64,000 nucleotides of DNA from Minisyncoccota bacterium (lineage in GTDB: Bacteria > Patescibacteriota > Minisyncoccia > Phycocordibacterales > CSBR16-119), in NCBI GenBank assembly GCA_041389065.1, contig JAWKSM010000002.1, positions 65,556 through 129,555 of the forward strand. Reading direction: 5' to 3'. Below are positions 2,917 to 52,979 of this stretch, one piece after another. Below the pieces are notes generated by a model. It was not told the origin of the DNA. It saw only the letters and a program-made list of their open reading frames with translations, and did no database searches. Made by a program: the position numbers and the translations under genes. How positions within the stretch are numbered: position 1 is the stretch's first letter; every line of letters begins with the position of its first letter.

Positions 2917-3384
2917 ATGAAAACCAAAACGTACGTTGCCATGAAAGTCTCACAGATGATGGCTATTACAAGAGAAAAGATGCCTGGAATGATCACAGGC
3001 GTACACACTCTAGGATTTCTTGCTATTTTAGGAAACCTTATTGGTATACATCACGAATCAATTGCAGCTAAAATTATTGAGTTTATCTTTTTTCTCTCTG
3101 TAATGATTATGATTAGTTTCAGCCTTGGTTATATGGTAGTAAACTGGAAAAAAGCTATACCTTTCGAAATATTACTACTAATAGTTATTTACATGTCTGC
3201 CGACCGTGCAGTTGATATTATCGCCTTATTGCAAGGATTTAATCTTAGTGAACCAAACATCAACATTAATATAAAGAAGGCATACTTCAATATCTTTATT
3301 GCTTGGACTGTATGTATAACGGCCTTCCAAATACTTATAAAAAGGGTTGGCATGAAAGTTAGAATTAGAGATAATGATCAGTAA
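2917..3384 (+). CDS. hypothetical multi-pass membrane protein
   Basis: 155-aa track ORF with four hydrophobic segments, followed by a strong terminator. Confidence 0.5.
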   Translation: MKTKTYVAMKVSQMMAITREKMPGMITGVHTLGFLAILGNLIGIHHESIAAKIIEFIFFLSVMIMISFSLGYMVVNWKKAIPFEILLLIVIYMSADRAVDIIALLQGFNLSEPNININIKKAYFNIFIAWTVCITAFQILIKRVGMKVRIRDNDQ

Positions 3385-3407
3385 GCAACTAAGTTGGAAA
3401 AATGTCC

Positions 3408-3437
3408 AAAGGGGCGCGCCGCAAGGCGCGCCCTTTC
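3408..3437. terminator. bidirectional rho-independent terminator
   Basis: GGGCGCGCC-GCAA-GGCGCGCCC is flanked by AAAG and TTTC. It lies between convergent genes. Confidence 0.75.
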
Positions 3438-3462
3438 ATCTTGTAATTTTTTAAAATAAAAA

Positions 3463-4461
3463 TTATTGCTTTCTCAAAATCTTCACCAATTCATCAGAAA
3501 CTTTTTTCATCGATTCATCATCGAAAGCCGACATTATAAAAACTGGTTTGCCAAGCTTATCAAATTCTTTCTTTGTTTTTGAAACAGTTTCTTCGTCCAC
3601 AACATCTGTTTTTGTAAGCAAAATAATTTCAGGTTTTTCTGCAAGTTCTAAATCGTAATCTTCAAGCTCTTTTCTGATATTTTTATAAGTTTCCATCATA
3701 TCACCCTGCCCGCCTTCAGCATTCGGGCCAGCATTTTCAAAAGACACGAGATGTGCAATCATTTTTGTTCTTTTTATATGTTTTAGAAATTTAAGCCCAA
3801 GACCTTTTCCCTCTGATGCACCTTCAATAATCCCTGGAATATCTGCAATAACAAACTCTTGCAAAACCCCAAGATGCGGATCAAGAGTTGTGAAAGGATA
3901 AGCACCAATTTTTGATTTTGCGTTTGTAACAGAATTTAAAAATGTCGACTTCCCTGCGTTTGGATAACCCACAAGCCCCAAATCAGCGAAAAGTCGAAGT
4001 TCAATAAAAAAGTTTCCGTCTTGACCTTCTTTTCCCGGAGTTGATTCATACGGAGTTGTGTTTGTCGAAGATTTAAAGTGTTCGTTTCCAAGTCCACCTC
4101 GGCCACCTTTCAAAATCAAAATTTCTTTTCCATCAGCATCGACATCATATTCTTCACCAGTATCTAAATTTGTCACAAGAGAACCAACCGGAACTTTTAT
4201 AAACAAGTCATTTCCATTTGCACCTTCTCGACTGTTTTTTGCACCAGCTTCTCCAGCTTCAGCCCTGAAATTTGGTTCGTGTGTGTAATCAGAAAGAAGC
4301 GATGCATCTCGCACGCCCTTTAGATAAACATCGCCACCTTTTCCGCCGTTTCCACCCGCAGGCCCTGACCAAGGTTTTGATTTTTCACGAAGCCAACGCA
4401 CGACACCATCGCCGCCGTTCCCCGCTTTTGCATATATTTTTAATTCATCAACTAGTGCCAT
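3463..4461 (-). CDS. obg: GTPase Obg/CgtA
   Basis: 332 aa. The Gly-rich Obg fold is GNGGDGVV...GGNGGKGGDV, followed by the G-domain motifs GYPNAGKST, DIPG and TKTD. Confidence 0.95.
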   Translation of the reverse strand: MALVDELKIYAKAGNGGDGVVRWLREKSKPWSGPAGGNGGKGGDVYLKGVRDASLLSDYTHEPNFRAEAGEAGAKNSREGANGNDLFIKVPVGSLVTNLDTGEEYDVDADGKEILILKGGRGGLGNEHFKSSTNTTPYESTPGKEGQDGNFFIELRLFADLGLVGYPNAGKSTFLNSVTNAKSKIGAYPFTTLDPHLGVLQEFVIADIPGIIEGASEGKGLGLKFLKHIKRTKMIAHLVSFENAGPNAEGGQGDMMETYKNIRKELEDYDLELAEKPEIILLTKTDVVDEETVSKTKKEFDKLGKPVFIMSAFDDESMKKVSDELVKILRKQ

Positions 4462-4470
4462 ATTTTTATT

Positions 4471-4758
4471 TTATGCAGCTTCTTCTAGACCATCTTCTCT
4501 ATTTTCTGAATCATATTTTTTAAAACCCTCACCAAGATGAGAAACATTAAATTTTACTGAAAACTTACCTCTGTCTTCTGCCACAAAAGCAATATTGCCA
4601 TATTTGGCATTTATCATATCAACACGATCTTTTGCTTCTTCTTCTGTGTCGAAAGAAAGCTTTTCTATTTCAGTTTCTTCAAAAAACCTCATAACCGCCT
4701 CTTCTTTTTCAGTTAGTTCTCTTTTTGCATTGAATTTTAGTTCCGGGTTATTTTCCAT
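4471..4758 (-). CDS. hypothetical acidic protein
   Basis: Track ORF 4471..4794. I prefer the internal ATG (MENNPELKF...) because it avoids overlap with the upstream gene's stop at 4769. Confidence 0.45.
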   Translation of the reverse strand: MENNPELKFNAKRELTEKEEAVMRFFEETEIEKLSFDTEEEAKDRVDMINAKYGNIAFVAEDRGKFSVKFNVSHLGEGFKKYDSENREDGLEEAA

Positions 4759-4768
4759 ATCTATTAAA

Positions 4769-5689
4769 TTAACTATTAATTGATAATTTAGCAAGCTCTA
4801 CTGCATCTTGTCTTTTTTCGGCGACACAATAAAATCCGGAGTTATGGCAAAAACTCGCCGAAGAAATTCCTGTGACTTTTTGCAATTCTTCGTCACGCAG
4901 ACCTCGCCAATTTTCCGGAAAAGGCTTTTTGCTTTCCATATTTTGCAGGCCGATTCTCGTCGCCAAAATTTTCCATATTTTCATATCGGTGCTTGGATAA
5001 ACAACATATAAAAGCTCTGGCAAATTTAAAGAAGCAACAGCAAGAGAAAATCTTTCGTAAGGATTTTCTACAACTGCCAATCTTTTGTCTTCAGATTTTT
5101 CGTAAAGATTTTTTAAATACAAATTAATTTCAAATTGTTTTTTTGTTTTTATGATACACTTCTGCAAAATTCTTTTCGCAAGCAAAACAAGCTCGTTAAA
5201 AGCTCTAAAGTATTCTACTTCGCTCGCATCTTCGTTTGGATAGTAGAGTCCAGTAATATCCTGAAAAGTTATGGGCGAAACATTTTCAATCTGCGAAATG
5301 TAGACGTTCATTCCGTTGTCGTTTGCATCGACTGGCTGTGCCAAAGCTCTGTCTATTTCTTTTGCAACTTCAAAATCACCACAAATCTCAGCGCCAAACT
5401 TTTTCCAAACCAAACCAAAGGCCGCAAAAGGCACTCCGTTTTCTCGCACTCCAGCGCCGCCTTTTTGATGATGATCAAACCTGTTTGAATTTGGGTCGTA
5501 AATCCCACCAACATCAAAAACAAAGTCAGCTTCTTTAATTATTTTTTCATCACGAGTTCTTACAATTTCAAAATCTTCACCTATTTTTTCTAAATAAATT
5601 TGAAGAGTTGCAGAGGCAAAAATATCGTCAGAATGAAATCCGCCGTTGTGGGTCGCTAGAACTTTTTTCTTTTTTAAAAATGAAAACAT
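4769..5689 (-). CDS. MYG1/UPF0160-family metal-dependent hydrolase
   Basis: 306 aa. It contains HNGGFHSDDIFA...FDHHQ...HNSGF, the MYG1-family histidine/aspartate motifs. Confidence 0.8.
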   Translation of the reverse strand: MFSFLKKKKVLATHNGGFHSDDIFASATLQIYLEKIGEDFEIVRTRDEKIIKEADFVFDVGGIYDPNSNRFDHHQKGGAGVRENGVPFAAFGLVWKKFGAEICGDFEVAKEIDRALAQPVDANDNGMNVYISQIENVSPITFQDITGLYYPNEDASEVEYFRAFNELVLLAKRILQKCIIKTKKQFEINLYLKNLYEKSEDKRLAVVENPYERFSLAVASLNLPELLYVVYPSTDMKIWKILATRIGLQNMESKKPFPENWRGLRDEELQKVTGISSASFCHNSGFYCVAEKRQDAVELAKLSINS

Positions 5690-6030
5690 TATTCTTTATC
5701 GATAACCTTGTCAGAAAGCCAGTTTAAAATTGAAACAATCACCGATCCCCAAAGTGCGTCTGTGAAAGATTCGACAGAAAACCCAGAAACAATAGTCGAA
5801 ACGAACCAGAAAAAAAGACCATTTAAAACTATAGAGAAAATTCCGAGAGTAAGAATATTTATCGGCAAAGTCAAGATTTTTATTATTGGTTTTATTATCG
5901 TGTGAATAAAAACCAAAACAGCTCCAGCTATTATTGCCGGCAAAACTCCCACAACCTCAATCCCAGAAACAAAATACGCAGCAGCAATAACTGCGAGTAT
6001 CAACATTAACCATCTAAAAAATATATTCAT
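5689..6030 (-). CDS. YvlD/holin-4-like (DUF360) small membrane protein
   Basis: 113 aa with four TM helices. The pattern IIKPIIKILTLPINILTLGIFSIVLNGLFFW is typical of the phage_holin_4_2/YvlD family. A TAATG stop-start overlap couples it to the next gene. Confidence 0.65.
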   Translation of the reverse strand: MNIFFRWLMLILAVIAAAYFVSGIEVVGVLPAIIAGAVLVFIHTIIKPIIKILTLPINILTLGIFSIVLNGLFFWFVSTIVSGFSVESFTDALWGSVIVSILNWLSDKVIDKE

Positions 6031-6070
6031 CCGGATAGTGATGGGCGCACACTGTGAACGCCCAAATTAA

Positions 6071-6526
6071 TTAAGCAAATAATCCATCGACCACTTTTTT
6101 TACATCTCCTCCATCAGCCTTTCCTTTTAAATCTTTCATGAGCGCTCCCATAAACTGACCTTTTTGTGATGCATCTACAACGCCCATTTCTGATTTTTTG
6201 TTTTCTGCAAAAGTGCGAATTTCTTCGATAGACATTAAAGTCGGAAGAAATTCTTCCAAAACAGCAAGTTCCTTCTTTTCGTTTTCTGCTAAGTCAGCGC
6301 GACCACCAGATTCAATCTGAGAAATAGAGTCTTTTCTTTGTTTTGACAAACGGGTCACTACAGCCAGCGCTTCGTCATCAGAAAGCGCGTCTTGCGGAGT
6401 TCTTTTTGTCGCAACAAGTTCATTTGTAAAAGCAGACAAAACGCCTTTCAAAACAAGCACTCTTGTTTCGTCTTTTGCTTTCATTGCATTTTTCACCTCT
6501 TCTTTAATTTTTTCTTGAAATGTCAT
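6071..6526 (-). CDS. yqeY: GatB/YqeY domain protein
   Basis: 151 aa. It contains IKEEVKNAMKAKD...LKGVLSAF...DLKGKADGGDVKKVV, typical of YqeY. Confidence 0.85.
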   Translation of the reverse strand: MTFQEKIKEEVKNAMKAKDETRVLVLKGVLSAFTNELVATKRTPQDALSDDEALAVVTRLSKQRKDSISQIESGGRADLAENEKKELAVLEEFLPTLMSIEEIRTFAENKKSEMGVVDASQKGQFMGALMKDLKGKADGGDVKKVVDGLFA

Positions 6527-6531
6527 AATTT

Positions 6532-6642
6532 TTAAAGATTATCAATAATTTTTTCCACTTTTTCCAATCGTTTAACCAAATCTTGAAATTCGCCGTATGT
6601 TACAAATTCGTCTTTTTTATTTTTCTTAACAAACTTTTTCAT
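6532..6642 (-). CDS. small hypothetical protein (36 aa)
   Basis: Hand-translated ATG..TAA ORF: MKKFVKKNKKDEFVTYGEFQDLVKRLEKVEKIIDNL. It ends 5 nt before the yqeY start and is below the track's size cut-off. Confidence 0.3.
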   Translation of the reverse strand: MKKFVKKNKKDEFVTYGEFQDLVKRLEKVEKIIDNL

Positions 6643-6675
6643 AACCATATTTTAACATATTCACCCAAAACAAAA

Positions 6676-6699
6676 CCAGCGCGCCTTACGGCGCGCTGG
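6676..6699 (-). terminator. rho-independent terminator
   Basis: CCAGCGCGCC-TTAC-GGCGCGCTGG. On the minus strand it is followed by TTTTGTTTTGGG. It lies directly downstream of the 705-aa gene. Confidence 0.75.
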
Positions 6700-6706
6700 A
6701 AAATAG

Positions 6707-8824
6707 TTACCTGCGGAAGCGAAAGACGAGCCAGTAGTCGCCATACCACCTCTTGCCCGGACTCGCAGTACCCGCGTAAAGCTCTAGCTCAGCGCCGTCC
6801 GAGCCAAGGCTGAACACATACGGGCTGCCATCACGGTCGACAATCCGCTTCATAACAATAAGCATCCATTCACCACCGCCATATTTTAAACGGAGCTGTG
6901 GGCCAACCTCTGCCGGACAAAGCTCTAGTCCGAGATCTTGTGCTTTTTGGTAAATCTGATCAGTTGTCGCGCTGGTTAGGCCAAGCTCTGAAGCAGTAAA
7001 TCTTACTAAATCATATTTCTCAACCTTTTTACTAAATTCTGTTTTGTATAAAATATTTTTTTCCCAATCTGAGATAAAAATTCCCTTATCTGTCATTTTT
7101 TGTTCGGCTTTTTGGGGTGAATCAATCGACGGGTCTGTTTCGAGTGTCATCATGAAAATTTTCTCTTCCGGGAATTTTTTGTAGAGATGCTCGATCTGCG
7201 GGAAATTTTTAAGTTTTTGGAAAACTTCTACGCTCCACTCGCCGACATATGCTTTTGTATTTTCATTTACCTCATTTATATTCCTCGCGACTTGTTCTTG
7301 TGTACAATCAAAAATAACAAGCATGTCTTCTTCGATATTTCTTTCTGCCAGAAGCTCGACAATACGTGGATCTTTTTGATATCCAAAACCTTCTATCGGA
7401 CTTTTCATCTCATACAAAAATTCAAGTTCTTCTTTTGAAAGTTTTGGATTTAGATATTTTTTCTCACCCGTTTGTTTGTCTTCAATAAAAGATTTATTGT
7501 AAATTTCTGTCATTTTACGCATGTCGCGATCTTTCTTTTCGTATTTTTCTGCTCCGGGCAGGTCTTTGTACTTTTCTTTGGCAATATCTACAAGCTGTGG
7601 TTCGAGTTCTTGTTGTGGGTTCACTCCACGGATTTCAGCAATCTCTCCGTTTATTGTTCGTATAGCAATACGTGGCTCGGTATTGAGACCTTGCTTATTT
7701 TTCGTATAGTAGACATAAAAGTCCCCCTGTTCCACATGACATTTGGCGGAACCTTCGGCGGTGCACCAGCCGGTGCCTTTTCCGTATAGAGATTGCTCGA
7801 GCTGTTTGTAATCTCCACCTTGAGGATATTTCACCCATTCGCCCACAATAGATTCGCGATTCATTGAACCGGCTGTTTCAACTTGGGCAAACGCGTAAAG
7901 TTTAGCAAAATCACCTGTTTCAAGTCTTTTTAGAAATTCATCAACGAGCTCTTTTTGTTTTTCTTCGTCTTTTTCTAAAATATAAGGAGCAAGAAAACCT
8001 TCAGCTCGTTTAATTTTGTTTTGTCTTATAAATTCTCCGCGTTTTTTATTTCGCAAATTTTTAAGTGCACCCTTTCGAGCTTCTTCGACAAATTCTGGTT
8101 TTGATTTTTCTAAAATCCTCTTTTCGGTTTCTTCGTCTAAAACAGTATTCTCTAATATATCTTTTTCAACTTCTTCAGGAACCCCAAAAGTGTCGAATTC
8201 CATTTGCATTTCTAAAGACCTTCGCACGAAACCAAGCGACTCTGAATTTCTTTCTGGAAAAGGTGCAATTGTGTCTTTGGTCCGTTCGGCGTATCGTGCC
8301 TCGTCACGATAAAAACGACCCATATCAGAGAGTCCACGAAGAGTATAATATTTAAACCACATTGGATAATCGTCAGAATCTTTTAGATATGAAAGCCAAT
8401 TATCTAAAGTCTCTTGTTGAATTTCATATTTTTCAATGATTGAGTTTTTATATCTTTCAATAGCCTCTTCTTCGTCTAAGTTTTCAATATCTCCTCCACG
8501 ACCTTGATTTATCGCTTGCCTTTTTTCTGACTCATAAAGATCGTTTGCGAGCTTGGAAACCAACTCTTCGTTTTCAATATCTAATACAAATTCGGCTTTT
8601 ATTTTCTGGATTAAAAGATCTGCGCCAGTTCTGCCTTCTGGCCGTTCTGTTTTTAAAATCCTATCAATACGGTCAAGATATTCTTGAATTGGGGAATTTT
8701 CTAATTGCTCATCTAGCTGAAATTTTTCTTTTATTTTGTTCGCACGAGTAACTTCCTTACTTTTTTCAAGATCTGGAAGCTTTTTCTTTAAAAATGATAC
8801 TTCTGGATTTTCACTAAATTTCAT
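6707..8824 (-). CDS. large hypothetical protein (705 aa) with a compositionally distinct C-terminal end
   Basis: Single uninterrupted track ORF with no family I can name. The conserved-looking core is GKGTGWCTAEGSAKCHVEQGDFYVYYT. The last ~95 codons are far more GC-rich than the rest. Confidence 0.6.
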   Translation of the reverse strand: MKFSENPEVSFLKKKLPDLEKSKEVTRANKIKEKFQLDEQLENSPIQEYLDRIDRILKTERPEGRTGADLLIQKIKAEFVLDIENEELVSKLANDLYESEKRQAINQGRGGDIENLDEEEAIERYKNSIIEKYEIQQETLDNWLSYLKDSDDYPMWFKYYTLRGLSDMGRFYRDEARYAERTKDTIAPFPERNSESLGFVRRSLEMQMEFDTFGVPEEVEKDILENTVLDEETEKRILEKSKPEFVEEARKGALKNLRNKKRGEFIRQNKIKRAEGFLAPYILEKDEEKQKELVDEFLKRLETGDFAKLYAFAQVETAGSMNRESIVGEWVKYPQGGDYKQLEQSLYGKGTGWCTAEGSAKCHVEQGDFYVYYTKNKQGLNTEPRIAIRTINGEIAEIRGVNPQQELEPQLVDIAKEKYKDLPGAEKYEKKDRDMRKMTEIYNKSFIEDKQTGEKKYLNPKLSKEELEFLYEMKSPIEGFGYQKDPRIVELLAERNIEEDMLVIFDCTQEQVARNINEVNENTKAYVGEWSVEVFQKLKNFPQIEHLYKKFPEEKIFMMTLETDPSIDSPQKAEQKMTDKGIFISDWEKNILYKTEFSKKVEKYDLVRFTASELGLTSATTDQIYQKAQDLGLELCPAEVGPQLRLKYGGGEWMLIVMKRIVDRDGSPYVFSLGSDGAELELYAGTASPGKRWYGDYWLVFRFRR

Positions 8825-10141: not shown

Positions 10142-11182
10142 ATGACTATCGTATACATACTTTTGGGACTTATTGCTGGATATATAATCTTTACCCTAAT
10201 AAACAAAAATAAAAAAGAAGATGCTTCATCTGACAAAGTTTTCAGATTTTTGACAGATGAAATGAAAGATATTCGTCGAACTCTCGACGAGAGACTTCGC
10301 GACTCTGGAAAAGAAATGATGGAGTCGCTCAAATATCAAACAAGCGAATCACAAAAATTAATCCGAGAAATTACTCGCGAGATAACAGAAGTTAAAGAAA
10401 CTGGAAAGCAAGTTATGACTTTCACAGACCAACTTCAGCAACTTCAAAATATGTTAAAAAACCCAAAGTCTCGTGGTGTTTTGGGCGAATACTATTTGGA
10501 AACACTTTTGAAAAATACTCTTCCGCCTGGTTCGTATCAAATGCAATACGGTTTTCCAAACGGCGACATTGTCGATGCTGTGGTTTTTATAAAAGACAAA
10601 ATAATTCCAATTGATTCAAAATTCTCTCTTGAAAATTACAACAAAGTTTCTGAAGCGGAAAATGCGGGAGACAAAGAAAGACTTGAAAAGCTTTTTATAA
10701 ATGACTTAAAAAATAGAATTGTCGAAACTGCAAAATACATAAAACCAGAAGAAGGAACAATGGATTTTGCTTTTATGTTTATTCCTCACGAAGCGATTTA
10801 TTACGATCTTTTGATAAACAAAATTGGTGCAATTGGCGAAGATACAGAAAACCTAATTCAACGCGCGGCAAGCAAATACAAAGTTGTTATCGTCTCCCCT
10901 ACTTCTTTTCTTGCATATTTACAAACTGTGCTTCAGGGGTTAAAAGCAATGCAAATAGAAGAAAGAGCCACAGAAATTCAAAAGCGTGTTGGCGAACTTG
11001 GAAAACATTTGCAAAGTTACGCCGACTATCATGACAAGCTTGGAAAAAATCTTGGAACAGTTGTAAACCAATACAATCTTTCAAACAAAGAATTTAAGAA
11101 AATTGATAAAGATGTAATGCGAATTTCCGGAGAATCTGCGAAGCTTGAACTTGCTGATGTAGAAAAACCAAAAGAAGAATAG
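10142..11182 (+). CDS. rmuC: DNA recombination protein RmuC
   Basis: 346 aa with an N-terminal TM and coiled coil. The core is RGVLGEYYLETLL...PNGDIVDAVVF...IPIDSKFSLENY...FMFIPHEAIYYDL. Confidence 0.9.
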   Translation: MTIVYILLGLIAGYIIFTLINKNKKEDASSDKVFRFLTDEMKDIRRTLDERLRDSGKEMMESLKYQTSESQKLIREITREITEVKETGKQVMTFTDQLQQLQNMLKNPKSRGVLGEYYLETLLKNTLPPGSYQMQYGFPNGDIVDAVVFIKDKIIPIDSKFSLENYNKVSEAENAGDKERLEKLFINDLKNRIVETAKYIKPEEGTMDFAFMFIPHEAIYYDLLINKIGAIGEDTENLIQRAASKYKVVIVSPTSFLAYLQTVLQGLKAMQIEERATEIQKRVGELGKHLQSYADYHDKLGKNLGTVVNQYNLSNKEFKKIDKDVMRISGESAKLELADVEKPKEE

Positions 11183-12051: not shown

Positions 12052-12124
12052 CGTATGTTGGGTTGATTTGTTAAATGTGCTTCTATATCTTTATACACTT
12101 AAAATGTTTTTTGTCAAGATAACC

Positions 12125-12155
12125 AAAAGCCCGGCGCCTTTGGCGCCGGGCTTTT
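12125..12155. terminator. GC-rich hairpin terminator, copy 1 of an identical pair
   Basis: AAAAGCCCGGCGCC-TTT-GGCGCCGGGCTTTTG. Its exact reverse complement recurs at 14688..14718. Confidence 0.7.
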
Positions 12156-12172
12156 GATTTTTAGTTTCAAAA

Positions 12173-12819: not shown

Positions 12820-13506
12820 TTATTTTTTCTTTAAATACGCCAGCCAAAAGTTTCTTTTGTATTTTCTGCCGCCAACTGTTGTATAACTTGAATCCTTTTC
12901 AAGACTCAAAATATCAAAATCTTTTGAATAAATATCTTCAAAATCACCTCGAGAAAAAACTCTTTCGGTCAGCCCCAAGTCTTCCATAAAATATGTATCT
13001 TTTTCTTTTCCAGGGCTAAGCTTCAAAAGATTTTGAGCATTTTTGTCGCCGTCTTTGCAAAGCGCGCGAACAAACATATATCCGCCTGATTTTAAAACTC
13101 GCACCACTTCTTTCAGGTAAACACTTCTCTCTTTTTCGTTCAAAGAATTTGAAGAAGTCACGTCCAAAACCAAATCAAAATATTCATTTTCAAAAGGTAA
13201 AGCTTTTCCAAAATCACCTTCGGTAAAATTAGTCAAATTAGAATATTTTTCTCCTCTTTTTTTAGAAATTTTTACAGCTTCTTTTGAAATCTCAATTCCA
13301 GAGACAAAAGATCCAAGATTCGCAAGATAGAAAGCATTCTTCCCTGTTCCAGAACCAAGATCTAAAACTTTCGCATTTTCAAATTCAAATTTCTCTTTTC
13401 TGCAGAGCCTTCTTACAAAATCTTTAAAAGCCACCGCAGGCTCATCTGAGTTTGTAATCATTTTTGGATTTTTGTATTCTTTTTCCCAGGCTGAAGTTTG
13501 TGGCAT
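12820..13506 (-). CDS. class I SAM-dependent methyltransferase
   Basis: 228 aa. SAM motif I is VLDLGSGTGKNAFYLA, and motif post-I/II is DLVLDV...LKSGGYMFV. Confidence 0.8.
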   Translation of the reverse strand: MPQTSAWEKEYKNPKMITNSDEPAVAFKDFVRRLCRKEKFEFENAKVLDLGSGTGKNAFYLANLGSFVSGIEISKEAVKISKKRGEKYSNLTNFTEGDFGKALPFENEYFDLVLDVTSSNSLNEKERSVYLKEVVRVLKSGGYMFVRALCKDGDKNAQNLLKLSPGKEKDTYFMEDLGLTERVFSRGDFEDIYSKDFDILSLEKDSSYTTVGGRKYKRNFWLAYLKKK

Positions 13507-13507
13507 A

Positions 13508-14377
13508 TTATAATTCTATATTACCCGAGGCTAAAATTGAGCAGGTAAATAAAACTAATAAATGACAATAGCTTACTGCTTCATACAAAGTAGTATGGTT
13601 TTCTTTTTTTGGTTTATGTGAGTCATAATTTCTTATAATTCTTGAATTATTTAACCCCCATAAAATCTCTAAATTAATACTGTATTTTTCACAGATATTG
13701 TTGTCAGAGAAAATTTTATTAATTTTTTTACTAATCTTATCTCCTGCTTTTAATTCTGGAATTAAACCAAAAACTAAATCAGTCGCCGTAATTACAGAAG
13801 ATAACATTTTTTTAGCATCCCTATCCTCATAAGAATTCTGAATACTTTCTAAAGATAAATGAATACCTTGGTTTTTCTCAGTATCAAACTGCTCCAAAAG
13901 AACTTTAGGAATTACTCTTTCTTCATCTTCATAATTTTCTATAATATTTTCAGCAACCTTAAAAGAAACAAGAATAGGAGTCATCTTTGTATTATCAACT
14001 TGTTTTAATCCTGATAATAATCTATTTATTTTTATCTTATTACTTACGATATAACCATTTCTGATATTATCAAAAATAAAAGGTCCTATACCCACATTAA
14101 AGTTATACATTAACTCTTCCTGATCACCCAATTCATATCCAGAAACAACCCCATAGTAATCATCTTTTTTTCCAGCTTTTTCTCTATAATATTCTAATTT
14201 TGAAAGAAAATAATTAATTATATTTTCGGGAACACCAACCTCAGTAAAATAAACGACACACAAGGCTATCCAATTCCTAATATCATCCCCGCTACGTACC
14301 TTTTTACTGGCAATAAACTCTAACAATTCCTCGTTAGTCTTTTTCCATTTTGTAATTTTTAATATGTCTTTTTTCAT
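13508..14377 (-). CDS. hypothetical protein with a C-terminal HEPN-type R-x4-H motif (possible Abi-like RNase)
   Basis: 289 aa. The C-terminal sequence is NNSRIIRNYDSHKPK, where RNYDSH equals R-N-x3-H. The gene is extremely AT-rich: line 13681-13740 has 11/60 G+C. Its stop lies 1 nt from the methyltransferase start. Confidence 0.35.
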   Translation of the reverse strand: MKKDILKITKWKKTNEELLEFIASKKVRSGDDIRNWIALCVVYFTEVGVPENIINYFLSKLEYYREKAGKKDDYYGVVSGYELGDQEELMYNFNVGIGPFIFDNIRNGYIVSNKIKINRLLSGLKQVDNTKMTPILVSFKVAENIIENYEDEERVIPKVLLEQFDTEKNQGIHLSLESIQNSYEDRDAKKMLSSVITATDLVFGLIPELKAGDKISKKINKIFSDNNICEKYSINLEILWGLNNSRIIRNYDSHKPKKENHTTLYEAVSYCHLLVLFTCSILASGNIEL

Positions 14378-14571
14378 TAATATTTAAAATTATTTATCTC
14401 AATTGTTTTTTGTGTCACAAATCACTAAATAATTTATTTCGTTCCACTCATAAATTATATAAGTGTTCGTGACCTCGGCTCAAAGTTTTTCTTTGTGGTG
14501 CAAAGAAAAACATTTCTCCGCCTTCACAAAATGCCCGCAGACAAAGCAGTTTTTCTGCTTTTCGCATTTTG

Positions 14572-14643
14572 TGACTCTACCGGGAATCGAACCCGGCTTT
14601 GATCCTTGAGAAGGATCCGTCCTAACCGATAGACGATAGAGCC
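14572..14643 (-). tRNA. tRNA-Glu (anticodon CUC)
   Basis: Hand-folded 72-nt cloverleaf. Acceptor is GGCTCTA/TAGAGTC and D stem is GTCT/GGAC. The anticodon stem GATCC/GGATC carries the loop TTCTCAA. The T arm is CCGGG-TTCGATT-CCCGG. No CCA is encoded. Confidence 0.85.
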
Positions 14644-14687
14644 GAAATGCGATGTTATTCTACTATTTTTAGATAAATGAGTAAAGC

Positions 14688-14718
14688 AAAAGCCCGGCGC
14701 CAAAGGCGCCGGGCTTTT
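14688..14718. terminator. GC-rich hairpin terminator, copy 2 of an identical pair
   Basis: AAAAGCCCGGCGCC-AAA-GGCGCCGGGCTTTTG is the reverse complement of the hairpin at 12125..12155. Confidence 0.7.
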
Positions 14719-14721
14719 GCT

Positions 14722-15372
14722 TTACTTTCTAGATTTTATATAGTTTATAAATTTTTGTTTAGTGGGGTCTGGAAATAATTTCATAAATTCTTCTGCTTTT
14801 TTATATCTTTCATCATTCCTATCAAAATCTTTATCTTCAGCAAGAAAATCATATATCTCTAATTTTGTATAGCCAGCCTGCTCAAGAACATCTGTTGTTG
14901 GATGAATTTGAGAGATATCAACATCGTTTATTTCAGAAGGTCTAAAATCTGGTGAATAAACCTCCAACACAGTTCCATAAATTATAGGATAACCCGTTTC
15001 TTGTTTTGCATAAAATTCTGACAATCGAGCCTTTGATTTAAGATCTTGATCTTTAAACTTATTCTTTAACCAATCTGGATTCTCAATAAGAAAAACACCT
15101 GTTACATTTTTACGGACTTCAAAACCAAAATCTTTAAAAACTTTTCCGATCAAACCGCCACTTTTTATTTTGTCATCAATAATACTAATTTCTTTATTAC
15201 CCTTATCATATTCAAAAATAGTAAGAGCGTATGTTCTGGCAATACCAGTACTATCGGAAAGAAAAGACTCCCTCATAAATCCATCATGCCTTACAATCTC
15301 TGAGTGAATTGGTCCATACTTTGACTCTAAGACATCAGTATGAAGTTTTTTATTTATATTAAAGTGCTCCAT
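14722..15372 (-). CDS. hypothetical protein
   Basis: Track ORF 14722..15441. I prefer the ATG at 15372 (MEHFNINKK...) because it removes the overlap with the upstream gene's stop at 15380. Confidence 0.5.
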   Translation of the reverse strand: MEHFNINKKLHTDVLESKYGPIHSEIVRHDGFMRESFLSDSTGIARTYALTIFEYDKGNKEISIIDDKIKSGGLIGKVFKDFGFEVRKNVTGVFLIENPDWLKNKFKDQDLKSKARLSEFYAKQETGYPIIYGTVLEVYSPDFRPSEINDVDISQIHPTTDVLEQAGYTKLEIYDFLAEDKDFDRNDERYKKAEEFMKLFPDPTKQKFINYIKSRK

Positions 15373-42467: not shown

Positions 42468-42677
42468 GTCAAACAAAAAACCACCTTCTCAGATGGCTTT
42501 CTGTTCTGGATACTGCTCTCAGCAGGTATGCAATGTGCGGAATAGTTACCTTTGATTTCTACCGAAACTTGAAGAGTCTAGGACACCCCCTTTGGAGGGT
42601 TCGTGCCCATGACTCGTTCTTAAAATGCTTTGGAAAATATAGCGATTTTAAGAGTCTCGATAGCTCTCACTTGGCTG

Positions 42678-42747
42678 CTGCCGGACTAGGACTCGAACCT
42701 AGATAGCTGGTACCAAAACCAGAGTCCTACCATTAGACGATCCGGCA
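42678..42747 (-). tRNA. tRNA-Gln-like (UUG expected), anticodon loop one nucleotide short as assembled
   Basis: The hand-folded acceptor is TGCCGGA/TCCGGCA, giving U1-A72, with discriminator G73. The D arm is GTCT-AATGGTA-GGAC and the T arm is CTAGG-TTCGAGT-CCTAG. The anticodon stem CTGGT/ACCAG encloses only 6 nt (TTTGGT). Confidence 0.7.
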
Positions 42748-50600: not shown

Positions 50601-52775
50601 ATGAAACTATTAATAGTAGAGTCACCATCGAAAGCAAAGACTATAGAAAAGTACTTGGACAACAAGTACACTGTTCGTGCGTCTGTTGGACATATCAGAG
50701 ATTTGCCAAAATCAAACAAAAAAGCCGTTGATATTAGAAACGGATTTAAACCAACATACGAAATATCACCTCTTAAAAAGAAGGTTGTTGATGAACTTAA
50801 AAAAATCGCGAACAAGGCAGATGAAGTTGTTCTTGCAACCGACCTCGACCGCGAAGGTGAAGCTATTGCTTGGCACCTCGAAGAAACACTTGGACTTAAA
50901 AACCCAAAGAGAATTGTCTTCAACGAAATTACAGAAAGCGCGATCAAAGAGGCGCTTCTTCATCCACGAGAAGTTGATATAAATTTAAAAAACGCCCAAG
51001 AAGCTCGCCGAGTTTTAGACAGGCTTTTTGGATACGATCTTTCTGGACTTATTTGGAAAAAAGTTAGATATGGACTTTCAGCAGGTCGTGTTCAATCCCC
51101 TGCTCTTCGGATTATCATGGAACGCGAAAGAGAAATTCGTGCTTTCAAACCTGAAAACTATTATGTGCTTTCTGCACTTTTAAAAGGGGGTGGCGACGAA
51201 ATGCTTTTTACTTGTGACAAAGAAATTTGGGACAAAAAAGAAGCAGAAGAAATTTTCGAAAATGCAAAAGTTGGAAAATGGTCTGTTGTATCTATTAAAG
51301 AAACTGAAGCGGCTCGCGCACCAAGACCACCGTTTACAACATCGACAATGCAACAAGTTGCTTCGACGCGTCTTGGCTTTGCACCATCTCGAACAATGGG
51401 CGTGGCTCAAAAACTTTACGAAAAAGGTTTGATCACATACATGAGAACTGACAGCACAAATCTTTCAAAATCGGCCCAAATGCAAATGGTTAAATACGTG
51501 GAAGAAAACTTCGGCAAAGAATACGCCAAAGCAAACTTCTATTCAAAAAAATCTAAAAACGCTCAAGAGGCTCACGAAGCTATCAGACCAACAAACCCGG
51601 CGCGACCAGCTCTTGGAACAACAGAAGATGAGAAAAAGCTTTACACTTTGATTTGGGAAAGAGCGATTTCTTCACAAATGACTCCAGCAAAAATCCTTCG
51701 AACAAAAGTTTCTGCAAATATTTCTGATGGTAAAATTCCAAACTTTTCTATAAACGGATCTCGAATACTTTTCCCGGGCTGGCTTGCGGTAGACAAAAGA
51801 TCTCGAGGTGAAGATGTTGAAGTTCCAAAACTTTCTGAAAAAGACTCTTTGACTTTAACAAAAGCAAATATGGAAGAAAAAGAAACTCTTCCACCTGGAA
51901 GATATACAGAAGCTGGACTTATCAAAGAACTTGAAAAAAGAGATATTGGAAGACCTTCAACATATGCTTCGATAATCAAAACAATTGTTGACAGAGGTTA
52001 CGTGATGAAAGAAGGAAGAACTCTTATCCCAACAGACACGGGCGATGTCGTTTCTACTTTCATTGAAAATAATTTTGGAAACTATATTTCTGATTCTTTC
52101 ACCGCTGAAATGGAAAGCGAGTTAGACGAAATCGCTGTTGGAAAAAGAACTTATGTAAAAACTCTTGAAGATTTTTATGGACCATTTACAAAAGCTTTAA
52201 AAGAAAAAGATGGAATAGAAAAACTGACAAATATTGGAGACGCACCGGCAGAATTCCCTTGCCCAATTTGCGGTAAAAAAATGGTTTACAAGCTTTCAAA
52301 AAATGGAAAGTTTATGAGTTGTTCTGACTTCCCTAATTGCACTGGTGCGCGAACAGAAGAAGGAAAAGAACTTGAGCCACCAAAAGAAATCGGCGAAACT
52401 TGTCCTGATTGCGGAGAAAAACACGGCGGGAAACTCGTTCTTCGAGAAGGACGATTTGGAATGTTTATATCTTGCTCAAGATATCCAAAATGTAAATTTA
52501 TAAAAGAAGATGAAGAAGAGGCAAAGAAAAAAAGAACTGGTGTAAAATGCACCGATTGTAAAGAAGGAGAAATGGTAGAACTACGTGGAAGATTTGGAAT
52601 TTTCTATTCTTGTTCAAATTATCCAGATTGTAAAAATGCCATAAAAGCAAAACCGACTGGAAAATTGTGCGAAATGTGCGGAAAACTCATGATGGAAGGG
52701 ACGAAGACAATCCCCGAACGTTGTAGCGATAAGAAATGTGCAATGCACAACCTCATAAATTACAGAAGTAATTAG
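50601..52775 (+). CDS. topA: DNA topoisomerase I
   Basis: 724 aa. The TOPRIM sequence is LLIVESPSKAKTI...ATDLDREGEAI and the catalytic region is TYMRTDS. Several C-terminal C4 zinc ribbons follow (CPICG...CSDFPNC, CPDCG...CSRYPKC, CTDC...CSNYPDC). Confidence 0.95.
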   Translation: MKLLIVESPSKAKTIEKYLDNKYTVRASVGHIRDLPKSNKKAVDIRNGFKPTYEISPLKKKVVDELKKIANKADEVVLATDLDREGEAIAWHLEETLGLKNPKRIVFNEITESAIKEALLHPREVDINLKNAQEARRVLDRLFGYDLSGLIWKKVRYGLSAGRVQSPALRIIMEREREIRAFKPENYYVLSALLKGGGDEMLFTCDKEIWDKKEAEEIFENAKVGKWSVVSIKETEAARAPRPPFTTSTMQQVASTRLGFAPSRTMGVAQKLYEKGLITYMRTDSTNLSKSAQMQMVKYVEENFGKEYAKANFYSKKSKNAQEAHEAIRPTNPARPALGTTEDEKKLYTLIWERAISSQMTPAKILRTKVSANISDGKIPNFSINGSRILFPGWLAVDKRSRGEDVEVPKLSEKDSLTLTKANMEEKETLPPGRYTEAGLIKELEKRDIGRPSTYASIIKTIVDRGYVMKEGRTLIPTDTGDVVSTFIENNFGNYISDSFTAEMESELDEIAVGKRTYVKTLEDFYGPFTKALKEKDGIEKLTNIGDAPAEFPCPICGKKMVYKLSKNGKFMSCSDFPNCTGARTEEGKELEPPKEIGETCPDCGEKHGGKLVLREGRFGMFISCSRYPKCKFIKEDEEEAKKKRTGVKCTDCKEGEMVELRGRFGIFYSCSNYPDCKNAIKAKPTGKLCEMCGKLMMEGTKTIPERCSDKKCAMHNLINYRSN

Positions 52776-52887
52776 TAAAGCATGCAAATTTCTTTGCATG
52801 CGATGATTGTCTTCGTCAGGCGCAGGTATATTTTGTTTTGCTAAGCAGAGGCAAAAATACCGAGCCGGGGTCAAAATTTACGTCAGT

Positions 52888-52979
52888 AAATTTATGTGTG
52901 ACCAAAAACCATACCAGAAAGATGCTCTGATAAAAAATGTCCTAACCATAATCCTCATAAATTAGAAGCTAAAAAATAA
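52888..52979 (+). pseudogene. diverged second copy of the topA 3' end
   Basis: It reads KFMC, then a 2-nt offset, then PKTIPERCSDKKCPNHNPHKLEAKK with a stop. The topA end reads KLMMEGTKTIPERCSDKKCAMHNLINYRSN. The copies differ by synonymous codon swaps (AGC/TCT, CGT/AGA). Confidence 0.55.

Follow-up and report, generated by a model that had tools for sequence, protein, structure and literature searches.

The HEPN superfamily carries a conserved Rx4-6H motif in which the arginine is followed by "mostly N, D or H", and the domain often has insertions between its second and third helices (Anantharaman et al. 2013, PMC3710099). The described systems closest to the gene reported here are the abortive infection (Abi) proteins AbiD/AbiF (Abi_2, PF07751), AbiJ, AbiU2 and AbiV, in which a single gene, sited in a defense or mobile island, encodes a family-specific N-terminus followed by a C-terminal HEPN domain with the motif R-N-x3-5-H. 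Further points of comparison are the MNT-associated HEPN-T proteins (PF05168; AF0298, 2hsb; TT1696, 1ufb; 7ae8), which stand alone at ~125-150 amino acids (aa) beside a nucleotidyltransferase antitoxin gene, PrrC and RloC, in which an ATPase is fused to the HEPN domain, and Csm6/Csx1, which combine an N-terminal CARF/SAVED domain with a link to CRISPR-Cas. Here we analyze an open reading frame (ORF) that lies next to a tRNA-Glu gene in a 64,000-nucleotide (nt) stretch of DNA, hereafter the window, from a Minisyncoccota bacterium (contig JAWKSM010000002.1 of assembly GCA_041389065.1), and whose 289-aa product shares the layout and the siting of the Abi proteins. The reading that we favor, with moderate confidence, is that of a solitary, self-regulated HEPN endoribonuclease, an effector of the abortive-infection or toxin type, residing in a tRNA-Glu-linked, variable and defense-rich slot of Paceibacteria. 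Coordinates of the features discussed are collected in Table 1, and loci from other genomes are designated by L numbers.

The 289-aa protein contains the sequence ...NNSRIIRNYDSHKPK..., which includes R249-N250-Y-D-S-H254, the motif near the C-terminus from which the original prediction, made from the letters alone, had read a HEPN-type RNase. A single R-x4-H could be due to chance, but its conservation in 64 members of the family indicates that it is not. R249, N250 and H254 are invariant in an alignment of 27 sequences, and in the alignment of 64 members, which reaches down to ~21% identity, the arginine and the histidine are present in 64/64 and the asparagine in 63/64 (aspartate in 1/64), with a gap of 3-5 residues between asparagine and histidine, i.e., Rx4-6H. 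The AlphaFold2 model built with the family alignment (predicted local distance difference test score, pLDDT, 85; predicted template modeling score, pTM, 0.70) is entirely helical over residues 129-289, with residues 215-231 forming a helical insert, and places R249-H254 at the end of the penultimate helix (236-254), followed by a loop (255-263) and the last helix (264-283). This location agrees with the definition of the HEPN domain in PMC3710099. In a Foldseek search of the PDB, the HEPN domains 2hsb and 1ufb ranked top, with target-normalized TM scores of 0.72 and 0.68, respectively, root-mean-square deviations of 2.7 and 3.6 A over 120 columns and a probability of 1.00; 2q00, Csm6 (6tug), the HEPN toxin 7ae8 and 1o3u were also among the top matches, in the company of otherwise random helical proteins. 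The HEPN reading has thus held up both in the conservation of the two residues and in the predicted helical bundle, and on the strength of the model and the alignment we consider it likely that the C-terminal half adopts a HEPN fold with a catalytic-type motif.

Given the intact R-N-x3-H motif, the C-terminal domain would most likely be a metal-independent endoribonuclease. Alternatively, the protein might have the fold but no catalytic activity and serve as an adaptor that binds ligands or proteins, in the manner of HEPN domains associated with nucleotidyltransferases. The two top structural matches, 2hsb and 1ufb, are both from the MNT-associated HEPN clade, and the family of 2hsb typically lacks the histidine of the motif (PMC3710099), both of which would be in keeping with an inert protein; against this, retention of R, N and H across 64 divergent members is the signature of catalytic families (PMC3710099), and none of the contexts of the gene harbors a neighboring nucleotidyltransferase. 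We therefore regard an inert adaptor as unlikely. The likeness to the MNT-associated proteins extends to ~120 aligned columns with the R-x4-H at the same helix junction. In contrast to them, the protein described here comprises 289 aa with an extra N-terminal domain and additional helices, shares 11-15% identity with them and matches no profile. The adjacent MNT gene of the HEPN-MNT type II/VII toxin-antitoxin systems is likewise not found here; no NTP_transf-type nucleotidyltransferase gene neighbors the HEPN gene in the window or in the 14 family contexts.

Although the gene was originally taken for an orphan, relatives were found. A word-indexed search retrieved 27 close homologues with 34-65% identity, all annotated as hypothetical, and those with named sources come from metagenome genomes of Candidatus Paceibacterota, Pacebacteria or Nomurabacteria. 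An exhaustive hidden Markov model search of 1.84 billion cluster representatives returned 89 clusters at E<=0.001, 80 of them at E<=1e-10, all metagenomic and mostly singletons. These sequence searches show the family to be genuine, small and without near neighbors in sequence space. The protein gave 0 matches in Pfam, NCBIfam, PADLOC and PHROGs, so that the original remark that it has no obvious family stands as far as curated profiles are concerned and fails in that a small, uncatalogued family exists. Among single members (64 scanned), the sole defense-related matches were sub-threshold ones to Abi_2 (7.8e-4), AbiJ (4e-4) and AbiD (2.6e-3), all of them HEPN-containing Abi families. Profile searches of PDB sequences with the 27- and 64-member alignments returned nothing meaningful. 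A phage origin was considered and rejected, as no relative was present in IMG/VR, the INPHARED phages or the PLSDB plasmids.

These sub-threshold matches to Abi_2, AbiJ and AbiD, the only ones of the kind, accord with the resemblance to the Abi proteins noted above. The differences from them are that neither the protein nor the family consensus matches a profile, that the N-terminal domain has no fold relative in the PDB, and that the named members are all from Paceibacteria/Parcubacteria metagenome genomes. By its C-terminal half we place the protein in the HEPN superfamily, but no existing family fits; it represents a new family with a new N-terminal domain inside a well-known superfamily and not a new kind of system. 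As for Csm6/Csx1, no CARF match was obtained here, the Csm6 structural matches cover the HEPN part only, and no cas genes lie next to family members.

Modeled alone with AlphaFold2, the N-terminal domain (pLDDT 84, pTM 0.74) found no match among PDB folds (all E>3, probability <0.25, TM <0.33), and its residues L18, W36, F57, G98 and F100 are conserved across the family. We propose that it is a regulatory or sensor domain. We infer RNase activity, dimerization, a regulatory role of the N-terminal domain and a function in defense. By analogy with other HEPN enzymes, the protein would act as a dimer with a single active site made up of both R/H motifs. Its N-terminal domain would hold it in check until a trigger appears, probably infection, whereupon it would cut cellular or invader RNA and halt growth.

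The genomic position of the gene bears out the proposal that the 3' flank of tRNA-Glu is a landing site for accessory DNA. The tRNA-Glu(CTC) gene lies 193 nt upstream of the HEPN ORF on the same strand and is 100% identical in two syntenic relatives, L015 and L016. L015 is ~94% identical to the window in DNA and 93-99% in proteins, and L016 ~75% identical in DNA; both retain PBP2, GDH, DUF5671, tRNA-Glu, the SAM (S-adenosylmethionine) methyltransferase that follows the HEPN ORF, p190, p272 and RmuC, and both lack the HEPN gene, which answers the call of the original prediction for a check of presence or absence in related genomes. The blastn alignment with L015 breaks at window position 14566 (L015 3731) and resumes at 13507 (L015 8000), and the L015 slot (3732-7999) holds 4268 nt of other DNA with 47% G+C in place of the HEPN segment, including a helicase that matches PADLOC typeIV_DinG (2.8e-38). 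The DNA thus differs exactly between the 3' end of the tRNA and the methyltransferase ATG, with the variable part setting in at the tRNA and not being the same in close relatives. L016 shows another arrangement, in which the tRNA is inverted and separated by 87 nt from the methyltransferase. Direct repeats of the island type are present at the tRNA 3' end in two relatives: in L063, repeats of 111 nt (90% identical), consisting of the last 7 nt of tRNA-Glu and downstream sequence, bracket a 6.7-kb segment with an ATPase gene and the HEPN homologue, and in L015 19 nt of the tRNA 3' end recur without mismatch 166 nt downstream. The L015 island also encodes a 214-aa protein matching a PHROG of unknown function and carries six copies of an intergenic module composed of a stem-loop, a terminator hairpin and a TTGACA promoter-like box.

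Composition sets the gene apart as well. The ORF has a G+C content of 27.6% (window, 36.7%), a value below that of every other stop-to-stop ORF of >=200 codons (39 ORFs in all; mean 36.7%, sd 3.5%), and positions 13681-13740 contain exactly 11 G+C in 60, confirming the AT-richness noticed at the outset; in 8/8 contexts measured, the G+C content of the HEPN gene is below that of its locus. The gene is accessory cargo of a variable slot 3' of tRNA-Glu in Paceibacteria and not a housekeeping gene. As in other tRNA-linked islands and defense hot spots, the variable segment starts 5 nt past the tRNA, relatives carry different cargo and tRNA-end repeats, and the surroundings are rich in defense genes; the locus differs from them in having no integrase and no far-side repeat in the window, and in that the insert amounts to a single 1-kb gene.

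Within the 14 independent family contexts (a metagenome scan for more loci returned only 5), a same-strand tRNA-Glu gene lies upstream of the HEPN gene in 8 (distances in Table 1), and no tRNA-Glu is present within 6 kb in the other 6. The tRNA-Glu genes at 5901-5973 of L005 and 122-194 of L006 differ only at anticodon position 34 (CTC and TTC, respectively), apparently a polymorphism of the anticodon, and L005 and L006 encode an identical HEPN-family protein. The closest homologue, at 5679-6534 of L064 (63% identity in its C-terminal part), is broken into ORFs of 99 and 177 aa by a frameshift close to a C-run, and is either a pseudogene or the product of an assembly error.

The recurrence of tRNA-Glu raises the alternative that the protein is a tRNA-Glu-linked anticodon nuclease or a tRNA-processing or quality-control RNase, for which the co-transcribed tRNA would serve as substrate, backup or immunity. 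HEPN anticodon nucleases do exist in PrrC and RloC (PMC3710099), more than half of the contexts (8/14) have the tRNA upstream on the same strand, the gaps of only 26-36 nt in L005, L059 and L064 leave no room for a separate promoter, and the same protein stands beside tRNAs that differ only at position 34 in L005 and L006. However, tRNA-Glu is a core gene that is 100% identical in relatives without the HEPN gene, 6/14 contexts lack it, the HEPN family is patchy and rare in its distribution, and the tRNA 3' flank carries unrelated cargo in L015, L008, L010 and L063 together with att-like repeats, just as an integration hot spot predicts. Because the core tRNA occurs without the gene, the cargo at its flank is unrelated and repeats of the tRNA end are present, a hot spot is favored over a functional link, and we consider a nuclease devoted to the tRNA improbable.

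The spacer between tRNA-Glu and the HEPN ORF is itself unusual. Its 193 nt are strongly structured (fold z-score -4.76), ~150 nt of it are conserved in L065 (87-225) and L063 (3662-3815), and compensatory changes are seen in 9/34 predicted pairs, among only three sequences; Rfam holds no family for this element. With a covariance model, the window and L063 each yielded one more copy, at 52773-52913 (+; E 4e-11) and 10411-10537, respectively, and no others were detected in the window when filters were switched off. A pattern scan of IMG/VR yielded 51 matches, none of which scored with the covariance model, and these were discarded as chance matches. The copy at 52773-52913 sets in with the stop codon of topA. 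Beyond it lie first a diverged repeat of the final ~65 nt of topA, which encodes ...PERCSDKKC... a second time, and then the terminator. The element resembles in its behavior a small insertion by which the 3' end of the targeted gene is restored; it may be mobile, of a miniature type, or mark the turnover of islands.

Two further readings were considered. In the first, the HEPN protein would be the toxin of a toxin-antitoxin pair whose antitoxin has gone unrecognized, for example the ~150-nt structured RNA or a small peptide that escaped annotation. In its favor, HEPN RNases that occur alone are as a rule toxic and require an inhibitor, and the structured element (z -4.76, with compensatory pairs) lies directly upstream of the gene in the window, L065 and L063. 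Yet where only 26-36 nt separate the gene from tRNA-Glu (L005, L059 and L064) the element is missing, as it is in the contexts without tRNA, from which it follows that the HEPN gene does not require it; copies occur away from HEPN genes (window 52773 by topA, L063 10411), and no neighboring ORF is conserved, leaving this reading with little probability. In the second, the link to tRNA-Glu would be functional and not merely one of position, in either of two ways. The protein would be a HEPN anticodon nuclease directed at tRNA-Glu and produced from the transcript of that tRNA, or the structured element would belong to a miniature element of Paceibacteria, not described before, that is mobile or guides recombination; inserting where highly conserved genes end, it would restore their 3' ends and seed integrase-less defense islands with cargo such as this HEPN gene. 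Even taken jointly, these two possibilities seem to us doubtful, and we retain the solitary effector in a variable slot as the preferred reading.

The ORF ends with TAA at 13510-13508 and, after one base, the ATG of the methyltransferase follows at 13506, as had been noted in the original prediction, which went on to suggest a HEPN-plus-methyltransferase module. In such a two-gene defense or toxin system, the methyltransferase would modify the RNase target or neutralize the RNase. The 1-nt gap, the lack of a terminator-like site between the two genes and the resemblance of the methyltransferase domain to the PADLOC mad2 SAM-methyltransferase domain (E 1.1e-16) could be taken in its favor, but the mad2 match spans the generic SAM-binding domain only, and the distribution of the two genes contradicts the pairing. 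A scan with one genome per species found full-length orthologues of the methyltransferase in ten genomes, two of which are the syntenic L015 (93% identical) and L016 (73%), where it occupies the same position without the HEPN gene; none of the ten carries a HEPN homologue within 8 kb, nor do any of 42 methyltransferase loci. Conversely, none of the 14 HEPN-family loci contains a methyltransferase homologue. Homology with L015 restarts exactly 1 nt before the methyltransferase ATG, so that the 1-nt spacing marks where the variable segment ends; the tight spacing is thus no evidence of a functional pair but the edge of a replaceable segment. The methyltransferase is very probably an unrelated core gene at the far edge of the slot and not a partner, and the module that had been proposed is highly improbable. 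With no terminator-like site found between the genes, co-transcription of the HEPN ORF and the methyltransferase is probable but incidental.

The immediate neighbors of the HEPN gene are not homologous between contexts, and a conserved protein partner was therefore rejected. Defense-related or mobile genes are frequent around it: a type IV Mrr enzyme (PADLOC 6.6e-59), NOV_C, DUF2726 and a serine recombinase in L007; an NsnA/GmrSD-like protein (3e-74), a HEPN_RiboL-PSP protein and a helix-turn-helix protein in L008; SocA_Panacea, SNase, DUF1016 and a resolvase in L003; and, in L012, a diversity-generating retroelement (DGR) reverse transcriptase with bAvd and a DNA methylase. In L012, which stems from a Pacebacteria genome, positions 1-1182 encode bAvd and an RVT_1 reverse transcriptase, with a GIY-YIG nuclease, ~5 kb upstream of the HEPN gene. 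A gene for a GajA/AriA/Old-like ATPase (4095-5957) lies 44 nt upstream of the HEPN homologue in L063, and one for a 921-aa Ppl/AriA-like ATPase (3233-5998) lies 2 nt upstream in L001; these pairings may represent a two-gene variant. The combination of a HEPN RNase with an ABC-type ATPase recalls PrrC/RloC and the OLD/Gabija/PARIS-type systems, for which the tRNA link is suggestive. Unlike the ATPase of PrrC and RloC, that of the present family is encoded by a separate gene, occurs in 2/14 contexts and is absent from the window, and no HEPN partner of GajA or AriA is described in the PADLOC models used.

Several observations weigh against the preferred reading. As to the class of the protein, the second hallmark of the superfamily, an acidic residue in helix 2, typically within Ex3[KR] (PMC3710099), is not clearly present: position 200 (helix 188-203) is D/E in no more than 52/64 members, and the residue four places further is not K/R; position 180 is E/Q/D in 62/64 members, and E150-x3-R154 is conserved but sits in an earlier helix. 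No HEPN profile of Pfam or PADLOC matched, family consensus sequences (n=5) gave 0 matches against the HEPN families in Pfam, and hhalign of the family against the single HEPN_RiboL-PSP sequence from L008 returned a probability of 0.4%, an outcome that the single-sequence template renders uninformative. As to the acquisition of the gene, no integrase was found in the window, including its slot, or in the L015 and L063 islands, and no far-side repeat of the tRNA-Glu 3' end was found in the window. The identity of the window HEPN protein to those of L005, L010 and L060 (44-52%) is similar to that of the core protein PBP2 (44-47%), so that the gene may as well have been inherited vertically over a long time, with losses, as gained recently. 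Lastly, the role in defense is drawn indirectly, from the neighboring defense genes.

Table 1. Features at the tRNA-Glu slot of the window, and distances between tRNA-Glu and the HEPN gene in the family contexts
Feature	Position	Strand	Description
HEPN-family ORF	13508..14377	-	289 aa, ATG start; N-terminal alpha/beta domain and C-terminal HEPN-like helical domain
N-terminal domain, ~residues 1-112	14042..14377	-	three helices, then a small sheet
C-terminal HEPN-like domain, ~residues 129-289	13511..13993	-	helices 129-153, 170-184, 188-203, 236-254, 264-283; insert 215-231
Predicted catalytic motif R249-N250-Y-D-S-H254	13616..13633	-	Rx4H, polar residue after R; C-terminal end of helix 236-254
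Strain-specific segment, 1058 nt	13508..14565	.	relative to L015; from 5 nt past the tRNA-Glu 3' end to 1 nt before the methyltransferase ATG
Conserved structured non-coding element	14409..14565	-	between tRNA-Glu and the ORF, within the strain-specific segment
Two sigma-70-like promoter matches	14389..14483	-	TTGAGC-18-TATAAT, 14483-14454; GTGACA-18-AATAAT, 14418-14389
tRNA-Glu(CTC)	14571..14643	-	ARAGORN; Rfam tRNA 55.7 bits; core gene anchoring the slot
Class-I SAM methyltransferase, 228 aa	12820..13506	-	Methyltransf_11/31/25, E about 1e-18
tRNA-Glu to HEPN gene, window			193 nt
tRNA-Glu to HEPN gene, L005/L006			28 nt
tRNA-Glu to HEPN gene, L059			26 nt
tRNA-Glu to HEPN gene, L064 (gene frameshifted)			36 nt
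tRNA-Glu to HEPN gene, L065			170 nt
tRNA-Glu to HEPN gene, L010			1.9 kb
tRNA-Glu to HEPN gene, L008			2.3 kb
tRNA-Glu to HEPN gene, L063			2.4 kb

The promoter matches listed in Table 1 come from a consensus scan, agree with the consensus at 10/12 positions each and are consensus matches only. On the other side of tRNA-Glu, positions 14722-15372 (-) encode a 216-aa protein (p239), translation of which probably begins at the ATG at 15372, 8 nt beyond the stop codon of DUF5671. It is part of a widespread and well-conserved Parcubacteria family (224+ homologues, up to 81% identity), one member of which is labeled chorismate-pyruvate lyase by one source, and has no match in Pfam, PADLOC, NCBIfam or PHROG; it is missing from L015, probably by deletion there. 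p239 was rejected as a partner of the HEPN protein, since no HEPN-family locus holds a homologue. Two near-identical, perfect GC-rich hairpins, the only two in the 64 kb, occur at 12116-12160 and 14683-14727 (AAAAGCCCGGCGCC-NNN-GGCGCCGGGCTTTT). That they are the ends of a mobile element was rejected because both are present in L015 and each lies just after a minus-strand stop, in terminator position; they are conserved bidirectional terminators. Elsewhere in the window, at 42677-42747 (-), ARAGORN lists a tRNA-like gene of 71 nt to which it assigns no identity and an anticodon of two bases (tg).

To our knowledge, few known defense systems have been detected in bacteria of the Candidate Phyla Radiation, whose genomes are tiny; defense in these bacteria is poorly charted, and more HEPN families are expected by specialists. 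A solitary HEPN nuclease family in a recurrent tRNA-Glu slot would widen the known immune repertoire of the Candidate Phyla Radiation, and a profile of the family would fill a gap in annotation pipelines. The N-terminal domain, for which no structural relative was detectable, may serve HEPN effectors as a sensor or regulatory module of a new type, and the structured element, if mobile, could explain the turnover of integrase-less islands in these genomes.

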